Source: a virus. From it: 10,147 bases of DNA. The notes beneath the pieces were generated by a model. The model was not told the origin of the DNA. It ran no database searches and saw only the letters and a list, made by a program, of their open reading frames with translations. Positions 741-9,048 of the stretch are shown piece by piece; position 1 is the stretch's first letter; each line of letters begins with the position of its first letter. A program made the translations under genes and the position numbers. The DNA is taken from the UHGV virus genome UHGV-1555203; one strand, 5' to 3'.

Positions 741-1178
741 TTAACCAGTTACTTTTGAGCGGATCGGGTACGGCGTATTGGCATCAACATCCAGACTGAT
801 ACCCGCAGTGAATTTGCCAGCCGTTAGTGGGCCAGTTGCGACGGAGTAGTTAACACGCAGATATCGCTGAACACCGGCAGGCACCTTTGCAGAAACAACT
901 CGTTTACCTGCTGTCAGGGCGGTCTTTGCCAGTGCGCCACTATCATAAATAGTGGTCCATGAGCTGTTATTCTCACTCGTCTGCAACTGGATGTTTACAG
1001 TTGCATCACCGCTTGCCGCGGCGGCTGCGTTAACCAGCGCCCAAAACTCAAGCGGGTAACCCACGCCGATATCACGACGTTTTCCGTCAATTGGACCGAG
1101 ATCGATTACGTCAGTAGAAGCCGCGGTATTCGTAACCGCCTGAGCTTCGGAGAACATCAACAGTTTGTCGGTGATCAT
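741..1178 (-). CDS. Putative phage head structural / decoration-like protein (145 aa)
   Basis: ORF-track 741..1178; GGAG 7 nt upstream of the ATG; Ala/Thr/Gly/Val-rich beta-type composition typical of small virion proteins; immediately downstream of the major capsid gene. Function inferred from context only. Confidence 0.6.
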   Translation of the reverse strand: MITDKLLMFSEAQAVTNTAASTDVIDLGPIDGKRRDIGVGYPLEFWALVNAAAAASGDATVNIQLQTSENNSSWTTIYDSGALAKTALTAGKRVVSAKVPAGVQRYLRVNYSVATGPLTAGKFTAGISLDVDANTPYPIRSKVTG

Positions 1179-2928: not shown

Positions 2929-3225
2929 TCACTCCTGTTCACTGGCCTCTTTGGCCATCTTCAAATACTGTTCAGGGCAATGCGCCATAACGCGCTGAAA
3001 CAGTTCCAGCGCCAGATTGCGTTGCCCCTCATTAAATGCCATTGCCATAGCGTCCATCGGTGAGATAGCGGAAAACACACGGCCTTTCTCCAGCACCGAC
3101 CAGACAACGCGACGCCCCTGTTCACTGCTCATGACAAAGCGAATGTCATCAATTTCACGCTGTGCCATGTCACGTTGCTTACGGGCGTTTTCTTCTTTCA
3201 GTTGATCGTCTTCGTAATCTGTCAT
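2929..3225 (-). CDS. Hypothetical head-morphogenesis protein (98 aa)
   Basis: ORF-track 2929..3225; its ATG overlaps the portal stop (ATGA overlap at 3222..3225), implying translational coupling. No family recognised. Confidence 0.55.
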   Translation of the reverse strand: MTDYEDDQLKEENARKQRDMAQREIDDIRFVMSSEQGRRVVWSVLEKGRVFSAISPMDAMAMAFNEGQRNLALELFQRVMAHCPEQYLKMAKEASEQE

Positions 3226-4901
3226 TGTGATTGCCCACCCTGACCACTAACTGCATTCGCCATAGCTGACAAAACACTCGGATCCGAAGTTTTAGCTTCG
3301 CTTAGCGTCTTGGCACCCTGTGCCGCCGCCATCCCCATCGCCATCATTTGTTGCTGCTGTTGTTGCTGTGCCCGTTGCTGGCGAGCCTGCTCAACCTGTT
3401 CCTGCGGAACAATGACGGTTGGAGACACTCCGGACATATCAGCGAATGCATCGATCGCCTGATCAACGTTGAGTTTGTCGAGAGCTTCTGGTTTCGCTTG
3501 CGCAAGTTGACCAATGAAGTTAACCGTGGACGCCAGACTGGACAGGCCGATAGACTTCTGCGCCTGAGCCATGACGGAAATGTATTCGACCTTCAGGGGC
3601 ATGCCTTCCATCGCGTCAGGCGGTGGCGGCAGCATGTTTTTACGCACCATCATCGAGAAAGAGCGATCAATGAGAGGATTAAGACATTCGTCGTTCAGGC
3701 GCTCCAGAACCGGCCCCAACATCAGAAGTTTTTCTTCTTTCATTTCGATCACCGCTTCCACAGGCATCGAGCGGGTATTGATGTTCTGCAACATCATGAA
3801 CAGATCGACAAAGTAGGCGCTGTTAATGATTTGACGAGTGTCCTGAATGTCTGCCACCAAATCTGCTGTACTGGGGTTAACCAGATAAGCAGGCCTGAAA
3901 CCATCCTGACCAGTAATCTGATCGATATACGTGATGTCGCCAGGAAGAAGGGAGGCACGCTGATTCTTGAGGGAATTCGGAGCAACCATCGGCGGATTGG
4001 TGGCTTTATCAATCAACTGCGACTTGCGCTTCTGGAGAAGCTGCAATGCCTTAACAGGTCCAAGCGCCAGCATACCCGGGCATGATGATCCATAAACATC
4101 TTCGCCGTTAACTTCCCAGCGCGGGGCCATAATTGGAAACTCATCGAATCCGGACTCACGCAACAACTTGTCGTTATCGCCACCAACCTCGTAATAAACC
4201 GATTTGAATGGCTTGTTCTTGCTATCCAGCTTCGATGTATCGCGGTCAATGTTCGGGTAAACCGAATGCATCACTTCAATCCACTTCTCGTAGGTTCCGC
4301 TTTCCCACATGCTTTTTACGGATTCGCTGACGTTATTTAGCCCGAACTCCTGAACAAGCTGACGAACAGTCATAGAGAACTTGCGAAAACAGGTGTCCAC
4401 ACTGCCACGAGGTGAGTTAGCCAGGTAGTAACTGCCTATCGGGAATGGCATTGTGCGAATGATGTCCTCGTCATCCTCCAGCACTGCCATTGCACCAGTG
4501 CTGTATGTGCCGAGGCTTCCGTATAACTGCGGCAGCGACTGATAGAGATTCGACTTATTGAACATATCGTTCATGCGGTTCTGCACCGCCTCAAGCCACA
4601 ACTTAACAGGGCCATAATCCATCATTTCAGGATCTGGCGTAGCCAGGCGAAACCACGGACGCGCGGGGCTTGTGATGCCTGACATCATGCCGCTGGCGAG
4701 AGTGCGCGCCGCCATAGTCCCGGTCGAATCAATAATGCGTGTATTGCGTCGATCGTTACGGTTAACCTCAGAAGCCAGAAAGCGGGAACCACGCGGGTTG
4801 ATGTAATCACTCAACTCGCGCCAGTGCGGCTCGAACGACTGACGCTCGCTTTCAAGTTGTGCGAACTGTTTGTTCAATCGCTCTTTAGTTGTTTCCGCCA
4901 T
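3222..4901 (-). CDS. Portal protein (559 aa)
   Basis: ORF-track 3222..4901; GGAG 8 nt upstream of the ATG; size typical of portal proteins; first large gene after the terminase large subunit; C-terminal Gln-rich tail. Assignment is by synteny and size, not by a search. Confidence 0.7.
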   Translation of the reverse strand: MAETTKERLNKQFAQLESERQSFEPHWRELSDYINPRGSRFLASEVNRNDRRNTRIIDSTGTMAARTLASGMMSGITSPARPWFRLATPDPEMMDYGPVKLWLEAVQNRMNDMFNKSNLYQSLPQLYGSLGTYSTGAMAVLEDDEDIIRTMPFPIGSYYLANSPRGSVDTCFRKFSMTVRQLVQEFGLNNVSESVKSMWESGTYEKWIEVMHSVYPNIDRDTSKLDSKNKPFKSVYYEVGGDNDKLLRESGFDEFPIMAPRWEVNGEDVYGSSCPGMLALGPVKALQLLQKRKSQLIDKATNPPMVAPNSLKNQRASLLPGDITYIDQITGQDGFRPAYLVNPSTADLVADIQDTRQIINSAYFVDLFMMLQNINTRSMPVEAVIEMKEEKLLMLGPVLERLNDECLNPLIDRSFSMMVRKNMLPPPPDAMEGMPLKVEYISVMAQAQKSIGLSSLASTVNFIGQLAQAKPEALDKLNVDQAIDAFADMSGVSPTVIVPQEQVEQARQQRAQQQQQQQMMAMGMAAAQGAKTLSEAKTSDPSVLSAMANAVSGQGGQSQ

Positions 4902-5122: not shown

Positions 5123-5190
5123 ATCAATGACTCCGTACGCAATTAAATTATTACCAATTTAACCACATATGATTTATTTATCGTAGGTGG

Positions 5191-5219
5191 TTGACATTTA
5201 ACGCACAAATTATTACCTT
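5191..5219 (+). promoter_or_regulatory. Candidate sigma70-type promoter for the plus-strand cassette
   Basis: Perfect -35 TTGACA (5191..5196), 17-bp spacer, -10-like TACCTT (5214..5219; weak, but T1, A2 and T6 present); embedded in an AT-rich block; inverted repeat TTACCT-TTC-AGGTAA (5213..5227) overlaps the -10. Confidence 0.4.
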
Positions 5220-5549
5220 TCAGGTAACAAAAGAGTTCATTCCGGTTACTAACCTGACTGGCTTGTCGTTAAATTGAACAGGTGGAGTGAGCTTTTATTT
5301 TGAGCAGTACGGCGTATGGCACATGCGCCGATAGCGGTCTGGATACGTTTAAGGGGCACCCTCCCTGGCTGTGGCAAACGAACCAGGTAGCCGGAATGTG
5401 CAAGTCGAGCGGTTTTATTCCGCGCACGGGGATTCACCATCCCGGCGATTCGGTGTGACGCCTCGGAAGAGACGAGGGTACAACGATGAGAGCATTTATG
5501 GAGCCGCGACAAAGTGTGGCGCCTTAACAGGCTAAGTGCTCTCAGCGTT

Positions 5550-5626
5550 GTGGCATTAGCTCAGTTGGACAGAGCAACCGCCTTCTAAGCGGTTGGTCGC
5601 AGGTTCGAATCCTGCATGCCACGCCA
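5550..5626 (+). tRNA. tRNA-Arg, anticodon UCU (reads AGA), 77 nt including encoded CCA
   Basis: Hand-folded cloverleaf: acceptor GTGGCAT/ATGCCAC (7 bp, perfect), D-arm GCTC-AGTTGGACA-GAGC, anticodon stem ACCGC/GCGGT with loop CTTCTAA (anticodon TCT), variable TGGTC, T-arm GCAGG-TTCGAAT-CCTGC, discriminator G, CCA. Close to E. coli argU-type tRNA but with different acceptor and anticodon stems. Confidence 0.9.
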
Positions 5627-5669
5627 GAATCACGCCTAAGGACCGTGATGCCAGAAGTTCCAGGTGCTT

Positions 5670-5711
5670 GGCGGTGATAGTTTCCCTTGAAGGACTATCA
5701 CCGCCCTTTTT
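5670..5711 (+). terminator. Intrinsic terminator downstream of the tRNA
   Basis: Perfect 12-bp stem GGCGGTGATAGT / ACTATCACCGCC with a 12-nt loop, followed by CTTTTTA. Confidence 0.6.
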
Positions 5712-5789
5712 ACAGCAGGACGCCATTGCGATGACTTCATGCTGTAAACCCGTACAGCCACGGAAGGCATAACTCATTGCTTCCAGTTC

Positions 5790-5812
5790 GCCCGGTTCGC
5801 CGGGCATTTTTT
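5790..5812 (+). terminator. Second intrinsic terminator / attenuator hairpin abutting the RBS of the 139-aa ORF
   Basis: GCCCGG-TTCG-CCGGGC (6-bp GC stem, UUCG loop) followed by A-TTTTTT, then AAGGTGAG (SD) and ATG at 5824. Confidence 0.55.
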
Positions 5813-5823
5813 AAGGTGAGATC

Positions 5824-6243
5824 ATGAAGACAATTGATATGTTGGCTAAGTATCTAAATGAATGGCCATTAAAATATTCTCGTATCGTTCAGGCTGAAGA
5901 CTGCATTTTTTATGGCGTTTTTGCTGGTAATGAAATGCATTACGAAGTAATTCAGAGTGAGGGACTGGCCGGGTTAACTCTTAGCGAAGACCATGGTACT
6001 AGCGTTACGTTCCATGACTGGATAACAGCACAACGTTCTGAAATGGAAAAAGGCGATGTTTTTGATATTTCTCGCGCTGTTTACGCTAAAGCAAAAAGTG
6101 ATAATGATTACATGAGCGAACACTTATACAACATGAAGTTACAATGCCTGCATGCGGCGCTTATTCAGAATGGGCACTTCGATAAAACAAGTGCCATCAA
6201 TATTGCGGAAGCCATCAACGCTGGATTTAATGCCATTAAGTAA
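5824..6243 (+). CDS. Orphan hypothetical protein (139 aa), moron-type accessory gene; no family recognised
   Basis: ORF-track 5824..6243; strong SD AAGGTGA 6 nt upstream of ATG; visibly AT-richer than flanking phage genes; opposite strand to all neighbouring genes; followed by palindrome and terminator. No TM segment or catalytic motif evident. Confidence 0.7.
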   Translation: MKTIDMLAKYLNEWPLKYSRIVQAEDCIFYGVFAGNEMHYEVIQSEGLAGLTLSEDHGTSVTFHDWITAQRSEMEKGDVFDISRAVYAKAKSDNDYMSEHLYNMKLQCLHAALIQNGHFDKTSAINIAEAINAGFNAIK

Positions 6244-6247
6244 CACC

Positions 6248-6259
6248 GTGACATGTCAC
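6248..6259. repeat. Perfect 12-bp palindrome GTGACATGTCAC, copy 1 (second copy at 8699..8710)
   Basis: Exact self-complementary 12-mer with shared 5' flank TAACACC; lies 5 nt after the stop of the 139-aa ORF and before its terminator. Confidence 0.8.
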
Positions 6260-6263
6260 AAAC

Positions 6264-6290
6264 AGCCAGCCGATGAGCTGGCTTTGTTTT
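6264..6290 (+). terminator. Intrinsic terminator after the 139-aa ORF
   Basis: AGCCAGC-CGATGA-GCTGGCT stem-loop followed by TTGTTTT; a second hairpin ATCCTC-ATCA-GAGGAT follows at 6291..6306. Confidence 0.6.
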
Positions 6291-6333
6291 ATCCTCATCA
6301 GAGGATATCAACGACATTATCCCCACCAGCGGA

Positions 6334-7809
6334 TTAAGCATATGGATCGTAATCTGTGATGGCCTTGCCTTGCTGGTTCTGCTGCCCGGGAATTCGCAGA
6401 CGCTTCGACACAGGGAACGCAAACGTCAGCAGTAGCGCATCGCCTTTACCAGGAGAACGCCCAAGCCGCTCCTTGATATCTTCCTTCGGTTCGATAACGA
6501 TTTTACCGTCCACTCGAACTTTGTACTCTGCCGCAGACAGGTCGTCCGCTGTTTCCTGGTCATCCAGCATGCCGCCCAGCCTCAGCCATGTCTTGCATGA
6601 GTTGAACATCTCCCCACGCTTGTTGAGCATCTGCGGGTCAGTAGACGCGCCACCGAACGGAACAAGTTGCCATGTACGACCCCAGCCATCACCGATTGAC
6701 TTCAGACCAGTTCCGTAACCGAAGTCGATGAACACTGCGTCAGCCTGGTACTGGTCTTCAAAGTCAGCGATACGCTTCGCCATAATCAGATCGTCAGTGG
6801 TCTTGTTGCCAGTCCACAGCACCTTACTGTGCAGCCCCTGCCGCAGGTATATCACAGCGTCATCAACGCCGGAGTATGCCGGGTCAACGCCGATTATCAC
6901 CGGAGCATGTGCAACCTGCGCAGCGGTTACCACCCGTTTCATTGCCTCGTCAGTAAGGCCGGTAGGGATAAACTGCAATTCAGATGCATCCGGGAATATG
7001 CCGCGCACACGGATTTTAACGAAGTCGCTGTCTTCCCCGTAGTCATCAACCCATTTCTGCAACTGCTGTTTGTTAGTGCCTTCCACCGTCCGGCTGTCAA
7101 TCTGCGCAGTTTTCCAGCGGTGTTTATATTTGCGGAAACATTCGCGAAAACGCCCGGTGTTACGTGTAGGGTTTCCGAACGCCACCCAGATAATCTCAGT
7201 GTCTTCGTCCGTAAGCGCACCCTCAGCAACTTCCCACACCAGATCCGCAATGTTCGACGCTTCATCGAATACCACGATGATGCGTTTGCGCTCGTTGTGT
7301 AGTCCGGCGAATGCCTCAGTGTTGTGCTCAGACCAGGGTATTGCGTCAGCCCGCCACCGCTTGTCGTGCCCAGGGTCATTGCTGTACATCGCGGTAGCGG
7401 TACAGGTAAACCAGTCTTTCGTGATAGCAAGGTTCGACCACTTGATAATTTCCGGCCAGGTCTTCGTTCGTAGCTGGTTGTCGGTGTTGGCGGTCACCAC
7501 GACCTTACAATCCTCGCAAGTGGACATGCCCCAGTTGATCAGCATTGAGATGAATGCGGATTTACCAATACCGTGACCAGAAGCGCGTGCCAACATAAGC
7601 GGCTGATAGCGCGTCTCTGGATTCTGCAGGTGATCACGTATCTCTCGGAACGCATCAGCCTGCCACTGACGTGGGCCGGTAGCATGTGCCAGTTCAGTCC
7701 CCTCTTCCCCCCACGGGAACGCATAGAGGGCATAGCCAAGCGGATCGTGAGTGAACCCTGCAATATCCTCGATTAACTGCTCTTCAGGAGATAACGCTGT
7801 ATCTGTCAC
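6334..7809 (-). CDS. terL: Terminase large subunit (491 aa), GTG start overlapping the terS stop
   Basis: ORF-track 6334..7809; deviant P-loop GHGIGKS, Walker B-like IIVVFDEAS, C-terminal nuclease-type acidic motifs (VIIGVDPAYSG...DDAV); GTGA start/stop overlap with the upstream small subunit gene. Confidence 0.9.
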   Translation of the reverse strand: MTDTALSPEEQLIEDIAGFTHDPLGYALYAFPWGEEGTELAHATGPRQWQADAFREIRDHLQNPETRYQPLMLARASGHGIGKSAFISMLINWGMSTCEDCKVVVTANTDNQLRTKTWPEIIKWSNLAITKDWFTCTATAMYSNDPGHDKRWRADAIPWSEHNTEAFAGLHNERKRIIVVFDEASNIADLVWEVAEGALTDEDTEIIWVAFGNPTRNTGRFRECFRKYKHRWKTAQIDSRTVEGTNKQQLQKWVDDYGEDSDFVKIRVRGIFPDASELQFIPTGLTDEAMKRVVTAAQVAHAPVIIGVDPAYSGVDDAVIYLRQGLHSKVLWTGNKTTDDLIMAKRIADFEDQYQADAVFIDFGYGTGLKSIGDGWGRTWQLVPFGGASTDPQMLNKRGEMFNSCKTWLRLGGMLDDQETADDLSAAEYKVRVDGKIVIEPKEDIKERLGRSPGKGDALLLTFAFPVSKRLRIPGQQNQQGKAITDYDPYA

Positions 7810-8402
7810 TGATTACCATCCTGACGTTCTTTGAGTCGCTTCCTGGCTGCTGCTATGCGATCAGCAATTGTCACATTCACATTAACATCCAGGCGTTCTT
7901 TGAATGCGTTGACGTCGACGTGCTTACCAATCAGTTCGAGGTTCTTCACCTTGTCAGGCCATTTAATTTTTTTGAGGATTGTCTCTATCGAATCCTCGTT
8001 CATGTTCATGATGGTCGATGACAGATCAAAGCCGCTAAGCGTAGTGCGCCAGATTTTCGGCCACTCGCGGATTGGCTTAAGGCTCCCATCGTCGTTGAGG
8101 ATGTCGATCACGTCCATCTGGTCGATCTCCACCAGGCGCATGAGAACGTAATCAGCACTGACGCGCATTCGTTTGTTGCGCTCCTCCATCAACTCGGCAA
8201 TCCGTTTCTGAATGCGTTCATCGCGCATCATGACACTGGCTTTAACTGCCGCTGTATTTGGGGAGAATCCTGCGTTAATCGCAGCCTGAGTCTGATTTTC
8301 AGGCGTTTTGATGTATGACTGGCAATAAGCCTCCTGCATTGCTGTTAGTGGCTTAAATTGCGTTGATTTGCGTTTATAGGTTTTAGGTTCAGCAGGCATC
8401 AT
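7806..8402 (-). CDS. terS: Terminase small subunit (about 198 aa from ATG 8402; track ORF extends to TTG 8480)
   Basis: N-terminal region LTAMQEAYCQSYIKTPENQTQAAINAGFSPNTAAVKAS matches the conserved helix-turn-helix core of small terminases; immediately upstream of and coupled to terL. The TTG-initiated extension (TITTTVTITTVV) is probably untranslated. Confidence 0.85.
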   Translation of the reverse strand: MMPAEPKTYKRKSTQFKPLTAMQEAYCQSYIKTPENQTQAAINAGFSPNTAAVKASVMMRDERIQKRIAELMEERNKRMRVSADYVLMRLVEIDQMDVIDILNDDGSLKPIREWPKIWRTTLSGFDLSSTIMNMNEDSIETILKKIKWPDKVKNLELIGKHVDVNAFKERLDVNVNVTIADRIAAARKRLKERQDGNQ

Positions 8403-8409
8403 AACCACC

Positions 8410-8438
8410 GTGGTAATAGTTACCGTTGTGGTAATAGT
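8410..8438. repeat. Tandem direct repeat GTGGTAATAGT (x2, 18-bp period) immediately upstream of the terS start
   Basis: Exact 11-mer at 8410..8420 and 8428..8438; on the coding strand reads ACTATTACCAC-N7-ACTATTACCAC ending 8 nt before the ATG. Confidence 0.7.
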
Positions 8439-8476
8439 ACCATGCAAAATAAAGCCGCCATAGTTGGCGGCAGTAT

Positions 8477-8710
8477 TCAAAGTCCATCAAATTCATCGTA
8501 AAAACTCTCGTCAAGATACCCTTTCCATTTACCGCGAATGAAAATTACATCCTCGCCGCAAGGGTGCTGACTGTCGATAACTATATCCCTCCTGGCGCAA
8601 CCATACTTATGCATGAGAAATTTAACCTCTTTCGGAAAATTAGCTGAGTTATCTCTCATATCTTCAAGGTCGTAGCGTATTTTTGGCATAACACCTTCGT
8701 GACATGTCAC
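8477..8710 (-). CDS. Hypothetical small protein (77 aa from GTG 8710, or 70 aa from ATG 8689)
   Basis: ORF-track 8477..8710; GTG start overlaps the upstream stop (GTGA), internal ATG at 8689 preceded by AAGGTG; stop overlaps the terS-frame TTG. No family recognised. Confidence 0.5.
   Translation of the reverse strand: MTCHEGVMPKIRYDLEDMRDNSANFPKEVKFLMHKYGCARRDIVIDSQHPCGEDVIFIRGKWKGYLDESFYDEFDGL
8699..8710. repeat. Perfect 12-bp palindrome GTGACATGTCAC, copy 2
   Basis: Identical to 6248..6259 including flank TAACACC (with 3-bp insert TTC); straddles the stop of the 113-aa gene and the start of the next gene. Confidence 0.8.
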
Positions 8711-9048
8711 ACTATTAATTTCGTTTCATGCCAGCCTTTGGTCACCCAGCATTGCGAGTCACCATTACACGGGCATGAATTAACTGGAACTCTCTCGCCG
8801 CACTTACCGCAACGTTTTCTGCTGATCGATTTTATACGCCCGCGCACCCGGGCATCATCCTGGCGGATCAGCAGCGCGATGTACTCGGCCATTTCATAGG
8901 GATCTCGACCAGGGCGCCGGGCGGCGCAGTTCCGCTCCAGCATTTCAATTTCCTGAGCATCAAGCACAATCTCCAGCTTACGCACACCAGATGCAGCTTG
9001 TCTGGCTCTCTGAGCGGCTTTGCGCTCTGCTGCTGATTTAGCCATCAA
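8707..9048 (-). CDS. Hypothetical protein with C-terminal Cys-rich zinc-ribbon-like motif (113 aa)
   Basis: ORF-track 8707..9048; basic/helical N-terminal half, C-terminal CGKCGERVPVNSCPCNGDSQC cluster suggesting a Zn-binding nucleic-acid-binding protein. Family not recognised. Confidence 0.6.
   Translation of the reverse strand: MMAKSAAERKAAQRARQAASGVRKLEIVLDAQEIEMLERNCAARRPGRDPYEMAEYIALLIRQDDARVRGRIKSISRKRCGKCGERVPVNSCPCNGDSQCWVTKGWHETKLIV

Follow-up and report, generated by a model that had tools for sequence, protein, structure and literature searches.

A phage-borne tRNA-Arg(UCU) is one of several exchangeable cargoes of a conserved structured leader RNA

The stretch of DNA analysed here, 10,147 nt of the virus genome UHGV-1555203 (the window), carries on its minus strand a packaging and head module of the epsilon15/phiV10 type and, between the gene for a gp3-like protein and terL, a plus-strand accessory unit of 1.2 kb (5123-6333) that comprises a leader RNA, a transfer RNA (tRNA) gene for tRNA-Arg(UCU), terminator-like sites and the 139-amino-acid (aa) open reading frame (ORF) referred to as ORF139 (Table 1). 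The region is 94-99% identical to the Uetakevirus phages HEMP4, PAS61, phiV10, TL-2011b and ZX5 and to many Escherichia coli prophages, and the 427 nt from the gp3-like gene to the tRNA are non-coding. An earlier note, made without database searches, had placed the tRNA antisense inside the late operon. It is indeed encoded on the strand opposite to the packaging and head genes, but it lies in the accessory unit and not inside a gene. That note overlooked the fusion of the tRNA to a conserved structured leader, for which the tRNA is one of several alternative cargoes.

ARAGORN identified a single tRNA in the window, tRNA-Arg with the anticodon TCT at 5550-5626 (+), and the Rfam tRNA model (RF00005) matched it over its full length with 73.3 bits versus a gathering score of 29 (E = 6e-15). 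Inspection of the sequence revealed a perfect 7-bp acceptor stem (GTGGCAT/ATGCCAC), a G as discriminator and an encoded CCA end; the cloverleaf, anticodon, acceptor stem and CCA described in the earlier note were thus all confirmed, including by the tRNA predictor it had proposed as a check. In an alignment with argU (dnaY) of E. coli K-12, 64 of 77 positions were identical, which bears out the designation as an argU-like phage-borne tRNA. Both tRNAs have the anticodon UCU and an encoded CCA, and the D-arm (including A20), the anticodon loop CUUCUAA and the T-arm are the same. The 13 differences fall into the acceptor stem (three pairs), two pairs of the anticodon stem, the variable loop and position 20a, with seven of the deviating positions located in the 3' half. 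A20 and C35, the identity elements for arginyl-tRNA synthetase (ArgRS), are both present.

Among all copies fetched, nine distinct tRNA variants were found, and in none of them was a stem pair broken. Variation was confined to the D-loop, the variable loop, the discriminator (G or A) and changes from Watson-Crick to G.U pairs in the acceptor stem. The cloverleaf is strictly kept in phages of Escherichia, Klebsiella and Salmonella with structure-neutral changes only, unlike the adjoining leader, whose identity between Escherichia and Klebsiella phages drops to ~72-74%. Judged from this pattern of variation, the phage tRNA-Arg is canonical and under purifying selection. A pseudogene or a chance cloverleaf is ruled out by the ARAGORN call, the Rfam score and the structure-neutral variants.

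The tRNA alone is already known and ordinary, since PGAP labels "tRNA-Arg" at the same site in uetakevirus prophages of E. coli genomes, and it is annotated there in O157 typing phages 9 and 10, in SPN9TCW and in Klebsiella phage ST512-KPC3phi13.3. The paper describing phage ZX5 mentions just "one tRNA" (PMC9782041). The same tRNA at the same site is the norm for the genus, so its placement is not unusual, contrary to what the earlier note had supposed.

The leader RNA preceding the tRNA comprises ~240 nt (5306-5549) and joins it without a linker: the 3' strand of the closing helix ends with ...CGUU at tRNA position -1, and the next base is G+1 of the tRNA. The structure was evaluated with 29 aligned representatives below 95% identity. 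The five-helix structure paired 98.3% of the cells versus 87.8% in column shuffles and 29-54% in slid registers; compensatory changes occurred in 10 pairs, and the covariation score was reached by none of 500 shuffles (RNAalifold was also run). The closing helix is kept by compensatory changes in 49 distinct versions, for example AACAGGUAAGAGC/GCUCUUUCCGUU and AACACGAGAGCGC/GCGCUCCCGGUU, and encloses inserts whose length ranges from 46 to 309 nt. The covariance model R1, built for the 5' domain, scored the window copy with 154 bits (E ~1e-45) and found one copy per prophage. The leader is a conserved, covarying structured RNA.

Table 1. Positions of the elements of the accessory unit, of the surrounding genes and of the operator-like palindromes. 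Coordinates refer to the window except in the last row.
Feature	Position	Strand	Basis or remark
Promoter-like region with operator-like palindrome	5191-5227	+	TTGACA 5191-5196, 17-nt spacer, TACCTT 5214-5219
Palindrome TTACCTTTCAGGTAA	5213-5227	+	overlaps the -10 hexamer
Leader RNA, 5' domain	5306-5481	+	covariance model R1, covariation
H1	5310-5330	+	
H2	5338-5341 with 5384-5387	+	encloses a variable sub-domain
Invariant core GGTAGCCGGAATGTGCAAG	5386-5404	+	
Variable hairpin	~5405-5428	+	
H4, loop UUCACCA	5429-5443	+	
Pseudoknot of the H4 loop	5435-5438 with 5452-5455	+	CACC/GGUG versus AACC/GGUU
H5, loop GAAGAGA	5461-5477	+	
Leader RNA, 3' domain: closing helix AACGAUGAGAGCAUU...AGUGCUCUCAGCGUU round a variable insert	5482-5549	+	compensatory changes
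tRNA-Arg(UCU), argU type, encoded CCA	5550-5626	+	ARAGORN, Rfam tRNA model; cargo module of the leader
Trailer hairpin ATCACG...CGTGAT	5629-5649	+	kept whichever cargo is present
T1, intrinsic terminator-like site	5670-5711	+	14-bp stem, then T run
T2, intrinsic terminator-like site	5790-5812	+	GCCCGG-ttcg-CCGGGC + T6; ends 11 nt before the ORF139 start codon
ORF139, 139-aa accessory ORF, variable slot	5824-6243	+	phrog_4846
T3, terminator-like site	6264-6283	+	after ORF139, before the end of convergent terL
TerS	7806-8480	-	
TerL	6334-7809	-	
gp3-like protein, 68 aa	4916-5122	-	
Portal	3222-4901	-	
Bbp19, protease/scaffold, GP7 capsid, Bbp16		-	packaging/head module
Palindrome copies in the E. 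coli N25 prophage locus	4904, 11441, 11503, 12215, 12263, 12424, 12600, 14502, 14564, 18474, 21681, 41292, 42352, 42477, 43802		coordinates of locus L192 (N25 prophage)

Mechanically derived ORFs of 87 aa (-) and of 52 and 54 aa (+) run over the leader, and some records label a "hypothetical protein" there. The variation consists of compensatory pairs and indel-rich hairpins and is not codon-like, and a coding region was rejected; the 87-aa ORF, the sole leader-overlapping ORF scanned, gave no PHROG match. A likeness of GGTAGC in the invariant core to the ops element of RfaH was judged by eye to be coincidental. The search of the window against Rfam 15 (E <= 1) gave only the tRNA and left the leader without a family, and in the lambdoid and P1 loci (E <= 0.1) only C4, isrK and tRNAs were detected, all away from leader and cargo. 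The leader was not mentioned in any paper found in a literature search. GOLLD and ROOL often lie next to tRNA genes in phages and prophages. Like these RNAs (bioRxiv 10.1101/2024.12.08.627333), the leader is a large, ornate, phage-borne structured RNA of modular build and variable size that is tied to tRNAs. It differs from them by its length (240-600 nt versus about 580-800 nt), its enterobacterial hosts, its defined position at the start of an operon and the lack of an Rfam match to those families.

Several of the inserts in the closing helix hold T-arm-like hairpins (GGTTCGAATCC). One or two such hairpins (GGTTCAATTCC, GTTCGATTC, GGGTTCGAATCCC) were seen in locus L005 (2800-2890), in L011 and L013 (~2690-2790) and in L012, which is BUCT554 (~2640-2680). 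T-loop motifs of this kind dock tRNA elbows or recruit tRNA enzymes.

The leader was present but unannotated in 92 phage records and occurred in three contexts. In uetakeviruses it lies immediately 5' of the tRNA or of an alternative cargo; in lambdoid carriers (cdtI, mEp460, 2H10, Ayreon and Stx2c, Stx2a and Stx2k phages) it follows right after the cI repressor gene; and in P1, P7 and related phage-plasmids it belongs to the ban operon, which is under the control of C1, and is located 15 nt past trnI with ban downstream. Of 5426 complete E. coli genomes, 1831 (~34%) contain the leader, at 2462 places of which 548 are on plasmids, and no annotated feature lay under the leader in any of the 30 E. 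coli matches listed. More copies, from IMG/VR as well as from Kosakonia, Citrobacter, Klebsiella, Kluyvera, Enterobacter, Erwinia and other Enterobacterales, came to light in a search with an invariant 17-mer. Non-enterobacterial matches to the 17-mer were dismissed as chance because the remainder of the element was absent.

The P1 copy (NC_005856, 71023-71191) consists of the 5' domain between trnI and ban and is unlabelled despite a very detailed record. The ban operon with trnA, trnT and trnI resembles the arrangement in the window in that tRNAs are part of a repressor-controlled early operon with the 5' domain of the leader close by. It differs in that the tRNA precedes the element, no 3' domain or cargo junction is present and ban follows. 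As a separate observation, the lambdoid carriers also encode a C4 antisense RNA and an isrK-like RNA beside an antirepressor gene, with scores above the gathering scores (L006, 775-963; L011 and L015, 206-396). Because of these Rfam matches next to the antirepressor gene, the lambdoid carriers combine a P1-type immI module with a lambda-type cI/cro region.

tRNA-Arg(UCU) follows the leader in 29 of 138 distinct copies, and most others are followed by a different RNA that also starts with GUGG. The tRNA cargo is confined to uetakeviruses (32 copies), of which 22 further members have a non-tRNA cargo in its place. Lambdoid copies carry cargoes of the GTGGTAA/TCA type or the GTGGTGA type or no such cargo, and P1-type copies none. 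The main alternative cargo is conserved and tRNA-shaped, with a terminal stem GUGGUGA/UCACCAC, a covarying first hairpin, a variable middle part and a last 5-bp hairpin abutting the 3' strand; it was called a tRNA neither by ARAGORN nor by Rfam. The possibility that other cargoes are cryptic tRNAs was rejected for L144, L169, L044 and L163, where ARAGORN found no tRNA at the junction; a single low-stringency call (L163; unassigned type, two-base anticodon) falls inside the leader. Cargoes of the GTGGTGA and GTGGTAA/TCA types are ~80-200 nt long with covarying hairpins (BUCT554, ~2690-2830; L015, L013 and L011 after the leader; L006, 3240-3350). The alternative cargoes constitute a second uncatalogued RNA family. 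The trailer AATCACGCCTNAGGACCGTGAT also follows the non-tRNA cargoes of other uetakeviruses, and because trailer hairpin and terminator are conserved with every cargo, the cargo is swapped as a cassette between fixed flanks. Other phage tRNA-Arg(UCU) genes include that of T4 and argN/argO of Stx phages. The window tRNA shares with such genes a carrier phage rich in AGA/AGG, and is distinguished from them and from argU by its linkerless fusion to a structured leader and its replacement by a non-tRNA RNA in sibling phages.

The exchange of cargoes bears on two alternatives to a decoding function of the tRNA. The tRNA or tRNA-shaped RNA might serve as a processing handle by which RNase P sets the 3' end of the leader, the leader being the product and decoding being secondary. 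In line with this, all cargo types have the form GUGG...CCAC, and their terminal stem of 5-7 bp abuts the leader with U(-1)/G(+1). Every tRNA copy has GTGGCAT as its 5' strand, whereas the 3' strand is subject to drift; the arms of the non-tRNA cargo are laid out as in a tRNA, and conservation extends to the flanks on either side. A handle would, in turn, hardly need a canonical tRNA selected including its anticodon loop and the ArgRS identity positions, and many leader copies (the P1 type and those directly followed by an ORF) lack such a cargo. Moreover, the last leader helix pairs up to position -1, which is expected to impede RNase P. On balance, we consider a processing handle improbable. 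The second alternative, a passenger or relic without selected function, such as a captured copy of host argU or a secondary attachment site for integrating elements, seems highly improbable to us. A known prophage integration site is argU, with DLP12 starting inside it, and the cargo position behaves as a recombination cassette between conserved flanks; but the strict retention of the cloverleaf across phages of three host genera argues against a relic, and the tRNA is not an exact attachment core, as its 3' half differs from argU at the seven positions mentioned.

The leader in the window is preceded by a promoter-like site with an operator-like palindrome, a layout that is conserved in uetakeviruses of Klebsiella, Salmonella and Enterobacter. 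In the 48-kb prophage locus of E. coli N25, 15 copies of the palindrome TTACCT-N3-AGGTAA were counted versus 0.99 expected. The copies are mostly intergenic and ahead of genes: two lie between the repressor gene and its divergent neighbour, others upstream of the integrase, DUF1064 and tailspike genes, and one over the -10 hexamer of the promoter-like site before the leader. By its number and distribution, the palindrome is likely the operator of the uetakevirus repressor or of another phage regulator; no published description of it as an operator was found in the literature. In lambdoid carriers, the promoter before the leader fits 11 of 12 consensus positions, and the operator of the cI-cro region is located between its -35 and -10 hexamers, identifying it as pL. 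In P1, the operon of the leader is controlled by C1 at Oban. Thus, from the operator-like site in the window, the pL/cI operator of the lambdoid phages and C1/Oban of P1, the leader is part of a repressor-controlled early transcript in all three phage groups.

Codon usage was determined for the PGAP gene calls of a near-identical prophage adjoining guaA in E. coli N25 (51 coding sequences, 12,233 codons). It contains 96 AGA (7.85 per 1000 codons; 12.7% of the Arg codons) and 51 AGG codons (4.17 per 1000), whereas the three flanking host genes have no AGA in 1469 codons; the E. coli genome average amounts to ~2 AGA and ~1 AGG per 1000. The genes for TerS, TerL, gp3, portal, Bbp19, protease and capsid and ORF139 are free of AGA, in agreement with the remark in the earlier note that the Arg codons read in the portal gene and in ORF139 are not AGA. 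Highest numbers were found for the endosialidase tailspike (17), an ejection protein with an SLT domain (13) and a 1004-aa internal protein (10), and several small early or regulatory ORFs reach 20-46 AGA per 1000 codons. The suggestion that the tRNA may serve phage genes other than its neighbours fits these values, which are correlative. Codon supplementation of such genes is plausible because the prophage as a whole is rich in AGA/AGG, and AGA/AGG supplementation for tail, ejection and early genes is the most likely role of the tRNA. Separately, the 113-aa ORF just upstream of terS (8707-9048, -; phrog_536, 'transcriptional regulator') has four AGA among its 113 codons; it belongs to the densest AGA users and is a candidate client of the tRNA.

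A counter-defence role, proposed in the earlier note, would imply that the phage tRNA replaces host tRNA-Arg(UCU) depleted by a host, prophage or colicin nuclease and that its altered stems make it a poorer substrate. Mutations in the loop have been proposed as a signature of phage tRNAs that evade nucleases (PMC10264068). In all nine tRNA variants, no substitution in the anticodon loop relative to host argU was found, so the loop-based form of this idea received no support. Colicin D cleaves within the anticodon loop, which is unchanged. The stems give a different picture: two anticodon-stem pairs, in a stem of unchanged length, and three acceptor pairs differ from argU, and changes in the anticodon stem, by which the motif of the nuclease is lost or the stem becomes shorter, are known to let phage tRNAs resist P2-OLD (PMC12445682). 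The P1 operon that harbours a member of the leader family also encodes tRNA-Thr(UGU) and tRNA-Asn(GUU), the anticodons of known OLD substrates, and in one relative the accessory slot next to the tRNA is occupied by a Tad2-like anti-Thoeris gene. Set against this, a defence nuclease specific for tRNA-Arg(UCU) was not found in the literature on phage-tRNA evasion, and 22 of 54 sibling phages lack the tRNA. We regard counter-defence as an unlikely explanation.

The position of the leader invites comparison with the antiterminator RNAs put of HK022 and putL-like of HK639, which were reportedly described by King et al. in 1996 and 2011. The put RNAs act in cis, bind to the zinc-binding domain of the β' subunit of RNA polymerase (RNAP) and suppress termination (Hwang et al. 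2022, PMC9378689). In putL of HK022, A9 is functionally critical, and the bulge C26-G29 contacts RNAP with U28 being critical (PMC9378689). H1 of the leader contains, in A-CGGCG...CAUG-CGUCG, the counterparts of A9, C10-G14, the bulge C26-G29 and C30-G34. The stem-I motif reads ACGGCGUAUGGCACAUGCGCCG in the window (5309-5330) and ...GCGUCG in most other copies. As a composite, this motif is present at a single site in the window (0 of 200 shuffles) and likewise at a single site in HK639, namely where the annotated putL-like RNA starts. In the leader, CAUG is predicted to be paired and not bulged as in put.

Further features shared with put are the position and the missing partner protein. The leader lies just past an early repressor-controlled promoter, after pL in the lambdoid carriers, where it is the first element transcribed, and after the operator-bearing promoter-like site in the window. 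No N-like protein is encoded, as the first ORFs downstream in lambdoid carriers lack an arginine-rich N-terminus. As to differences, put has ~70 nt and two stems, whereas the leader has at least 240 nt with five helices, a pseudoknot and a long closing helix, occurs as one copy per genome with none in the pR operon, and is also found outside lambdoid phages. BLAST and nhmmer revealed no similarity between leader and put. Membership in the HK022 put/HK639 putL family was rejected on these searches and on covariance models applied both ways, a short stem-I motif being all that is common. A lambda-type nut site was considered as well, with H5 resembling boxB and UGCUCUUUC resembling boxA; it was rejected because the boxA-like strand is paired and not conserved, its covarying changes departing from the boxA consensus, and because the element is not followed by an N-like ORF. 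By analogy, the leader may still work like put, a possibility that we hold only tentatively.

The invariant segments UGGCACAUG (top of H1, 5318-5324) and AUGUGCAAG (core, 5396-5404) are complementary (alignment columns 14-19 with 96-101), and RNAalifold ranks their long-range pairing above the local hairpin H1, in which a covarying pair also exists. As modelled, the pairing may represent an alternative conformation or a switch. This would suit a stand-alone regulatory or ligand-sensing RNA (binding RNAP, another protein or a small molecule, in the manner of a riboswitch-like 5' untranslated region) that has nothing to do with antitermination and with which the tRNA is merely co-transcribed. 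The 5' domain located ~100 nt or less before a start codon in P1 and some metagenomic copies is consistent with such an RNA, as are the T-loop hairpins in the inserts, which are also found in known tRNA- or protein-docking RNAs. Unlike those of a metabolite riboswitch, however, the downstream genes are unrelated (tRNA, ban helicase, yfdP/Q/R and various ORFs), and no Rfam family matches. A stand-alone RNA thus appears improbable to us.

Our preferred reading, which we give an even chance of being right as a whole, is that a functional argU-type tRNA of a phiV10/epsilon15-like temperate podophage forms the 3' cargo of a composite non-coding transcript, supplements AGA/AGG decoding and follows a put-like leader. 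The order is operator-bearing promoter, leader, linkerless tRNA, trailer hairpin and terminators. The unit would be transcribed under phage regulatory control, and RNase P would cut between U(-1) and G(+1) and so free the tRNA, which would then add to the scarce host decoding of AGA/AGG in tailspike, ejection and early or regulatory genes. The leader would act in cis on the transcription complex in a put-like manner, the most likely of its conceivable actions, and RNAP could in this way pass T1 and T2 to reach the promoterless ORF139, the least certain step.

Several observations weigh against this reading. With regard to the tRNA, it is dispensable at the site, as 22 of 54 uetakevirus copies bear a non-tRNA cargo, the host already has argU, and AGA richness is a general mark of horizontally acquired genes, so that the codon correlation is no proof of function. 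With regard to the promoter, the -10 hexamer is weak, and a simple promoter scan did not call the 5191-5219 site. With regard to antitermination, the leader model R1 found nothing in HK022 or HK639, and the put model R2, which detected HK639 (92 bits) and the untrained divergent put of PdC23 (E = 3e-9), found no leader in the window, in 2H10, in P1 or in the Klebsiella, Salmonella and Enterobacter phages. The P1 copy has no 3' domain and no terminator before ban, and persistent antitermination would run beyond T3 into terL antisense. Terminators on the same strand downstream of the leader (39% versus 19% on the opposite strand) gave a method-limited and weakly positive result that also counts here. 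That the leader represents a new widespread class of cis-acting phage RNA that modifies the elongation complex, a large and distant relative or functional analogue of put that heads immediate-early transcripts in lambdoid phages, P1-like phage-plasmids and uetakeviruses, with exchangeable tRNA or tRNA-shaped cargo released at a fixed junction, is offered with reserve and seems rather doubtful.

The terminator-like sites relevant to this step frame the accessory slot. Two intrinsic terminators come after the tRNA (5670-5705 and 5790-5805), and the distance from the T2 stem to the start of ORF139, 18 nt, is too short to accommodate a separate promoter. A similar order with a terminator ahead of the downstream ORF is found in SPN9TCW, and in lambdoid phages a terminator-like hairpin lies between leader and cargo on one side and the early-left genes on the other. 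For ORF139, phrog_4846 was the sole match, with none in Pfam or PADLOC; its homologues are all labelled 'hypothetical' and are confined to Enterobacteriaceae. An AlphaFold2 model was of low confidence (predicted local distance difference test, pLDDT, 67; predicted template modelling score, pTM, 0.40), and a fold search was therefore not justified. In relatives, the slot is occupied by a PF13876 protein (gp49/66), a Tad2-like protein (PF11195), other ORFs or nothing, and the accessory ORF assorts independently of the cargo. The Tad2-like anti-Thoeris protein is encoded by Klebsiella phage ST512-KPC3phi13.3 (3197-3718 of its locus; PF11195, E = 4e-26), the PF13876 protein by phiV10 and BUCT554. 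An assignment of the phiV10 ORF to Tad2 proved wrong, only the ORF of the Klebsiella phage being Tad2-like. The slot may collect anti-defence genes.

The new point is that the tRNA is an interchangeable payload of a structured RNA that is widespread, absent from catalogues and located at the head of early transcripts. Textbook phages have this RNA too, P1 between trnI and ban, and cdtI, mEp460 and Stx2-converting phages in their pL leaders. If the leader does represent a new class of RNA that modifies the elongation complex, tRNA-Arg is one payload of a general cassette for early expression and processing. Should the leader be put-like, RNA-only antitermination would be far commoner than the handful of HK022-type phages suggests, and it could explain expression of the early-left operon in N-less lambdoid phages, including Stx2-converting ones. 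Should it act otherwise, a large phage RNA of a new sort, equipped with a modular tRNA or tRNA-like cargo, would bear on the use of tRNAs by phages in decoding or anti-defence.

Two minor observations concern annotation and the reference prophage. An 83-aa ORF antisense across the tRNA (5556-5807, -) matches phrog_4647 (E = 3e-54), and its phiV10 counterpart is annotated as p04, hypothetical. As the ORF overlaps the conserved tRNA and a terminator, it is probably spurious and phrog_4647 an annotation artefact; an antisense ORF across a tRNA has thereby become a protein family of its own. In the prophage of E. coli N25, an insertion of the IS3 family interrupts the gene for the capsid-cement protein Bbp16 (600-1813 of locus L001), so that this prophage is probably defective, whereas the copy in the window (741-1178) is intact.

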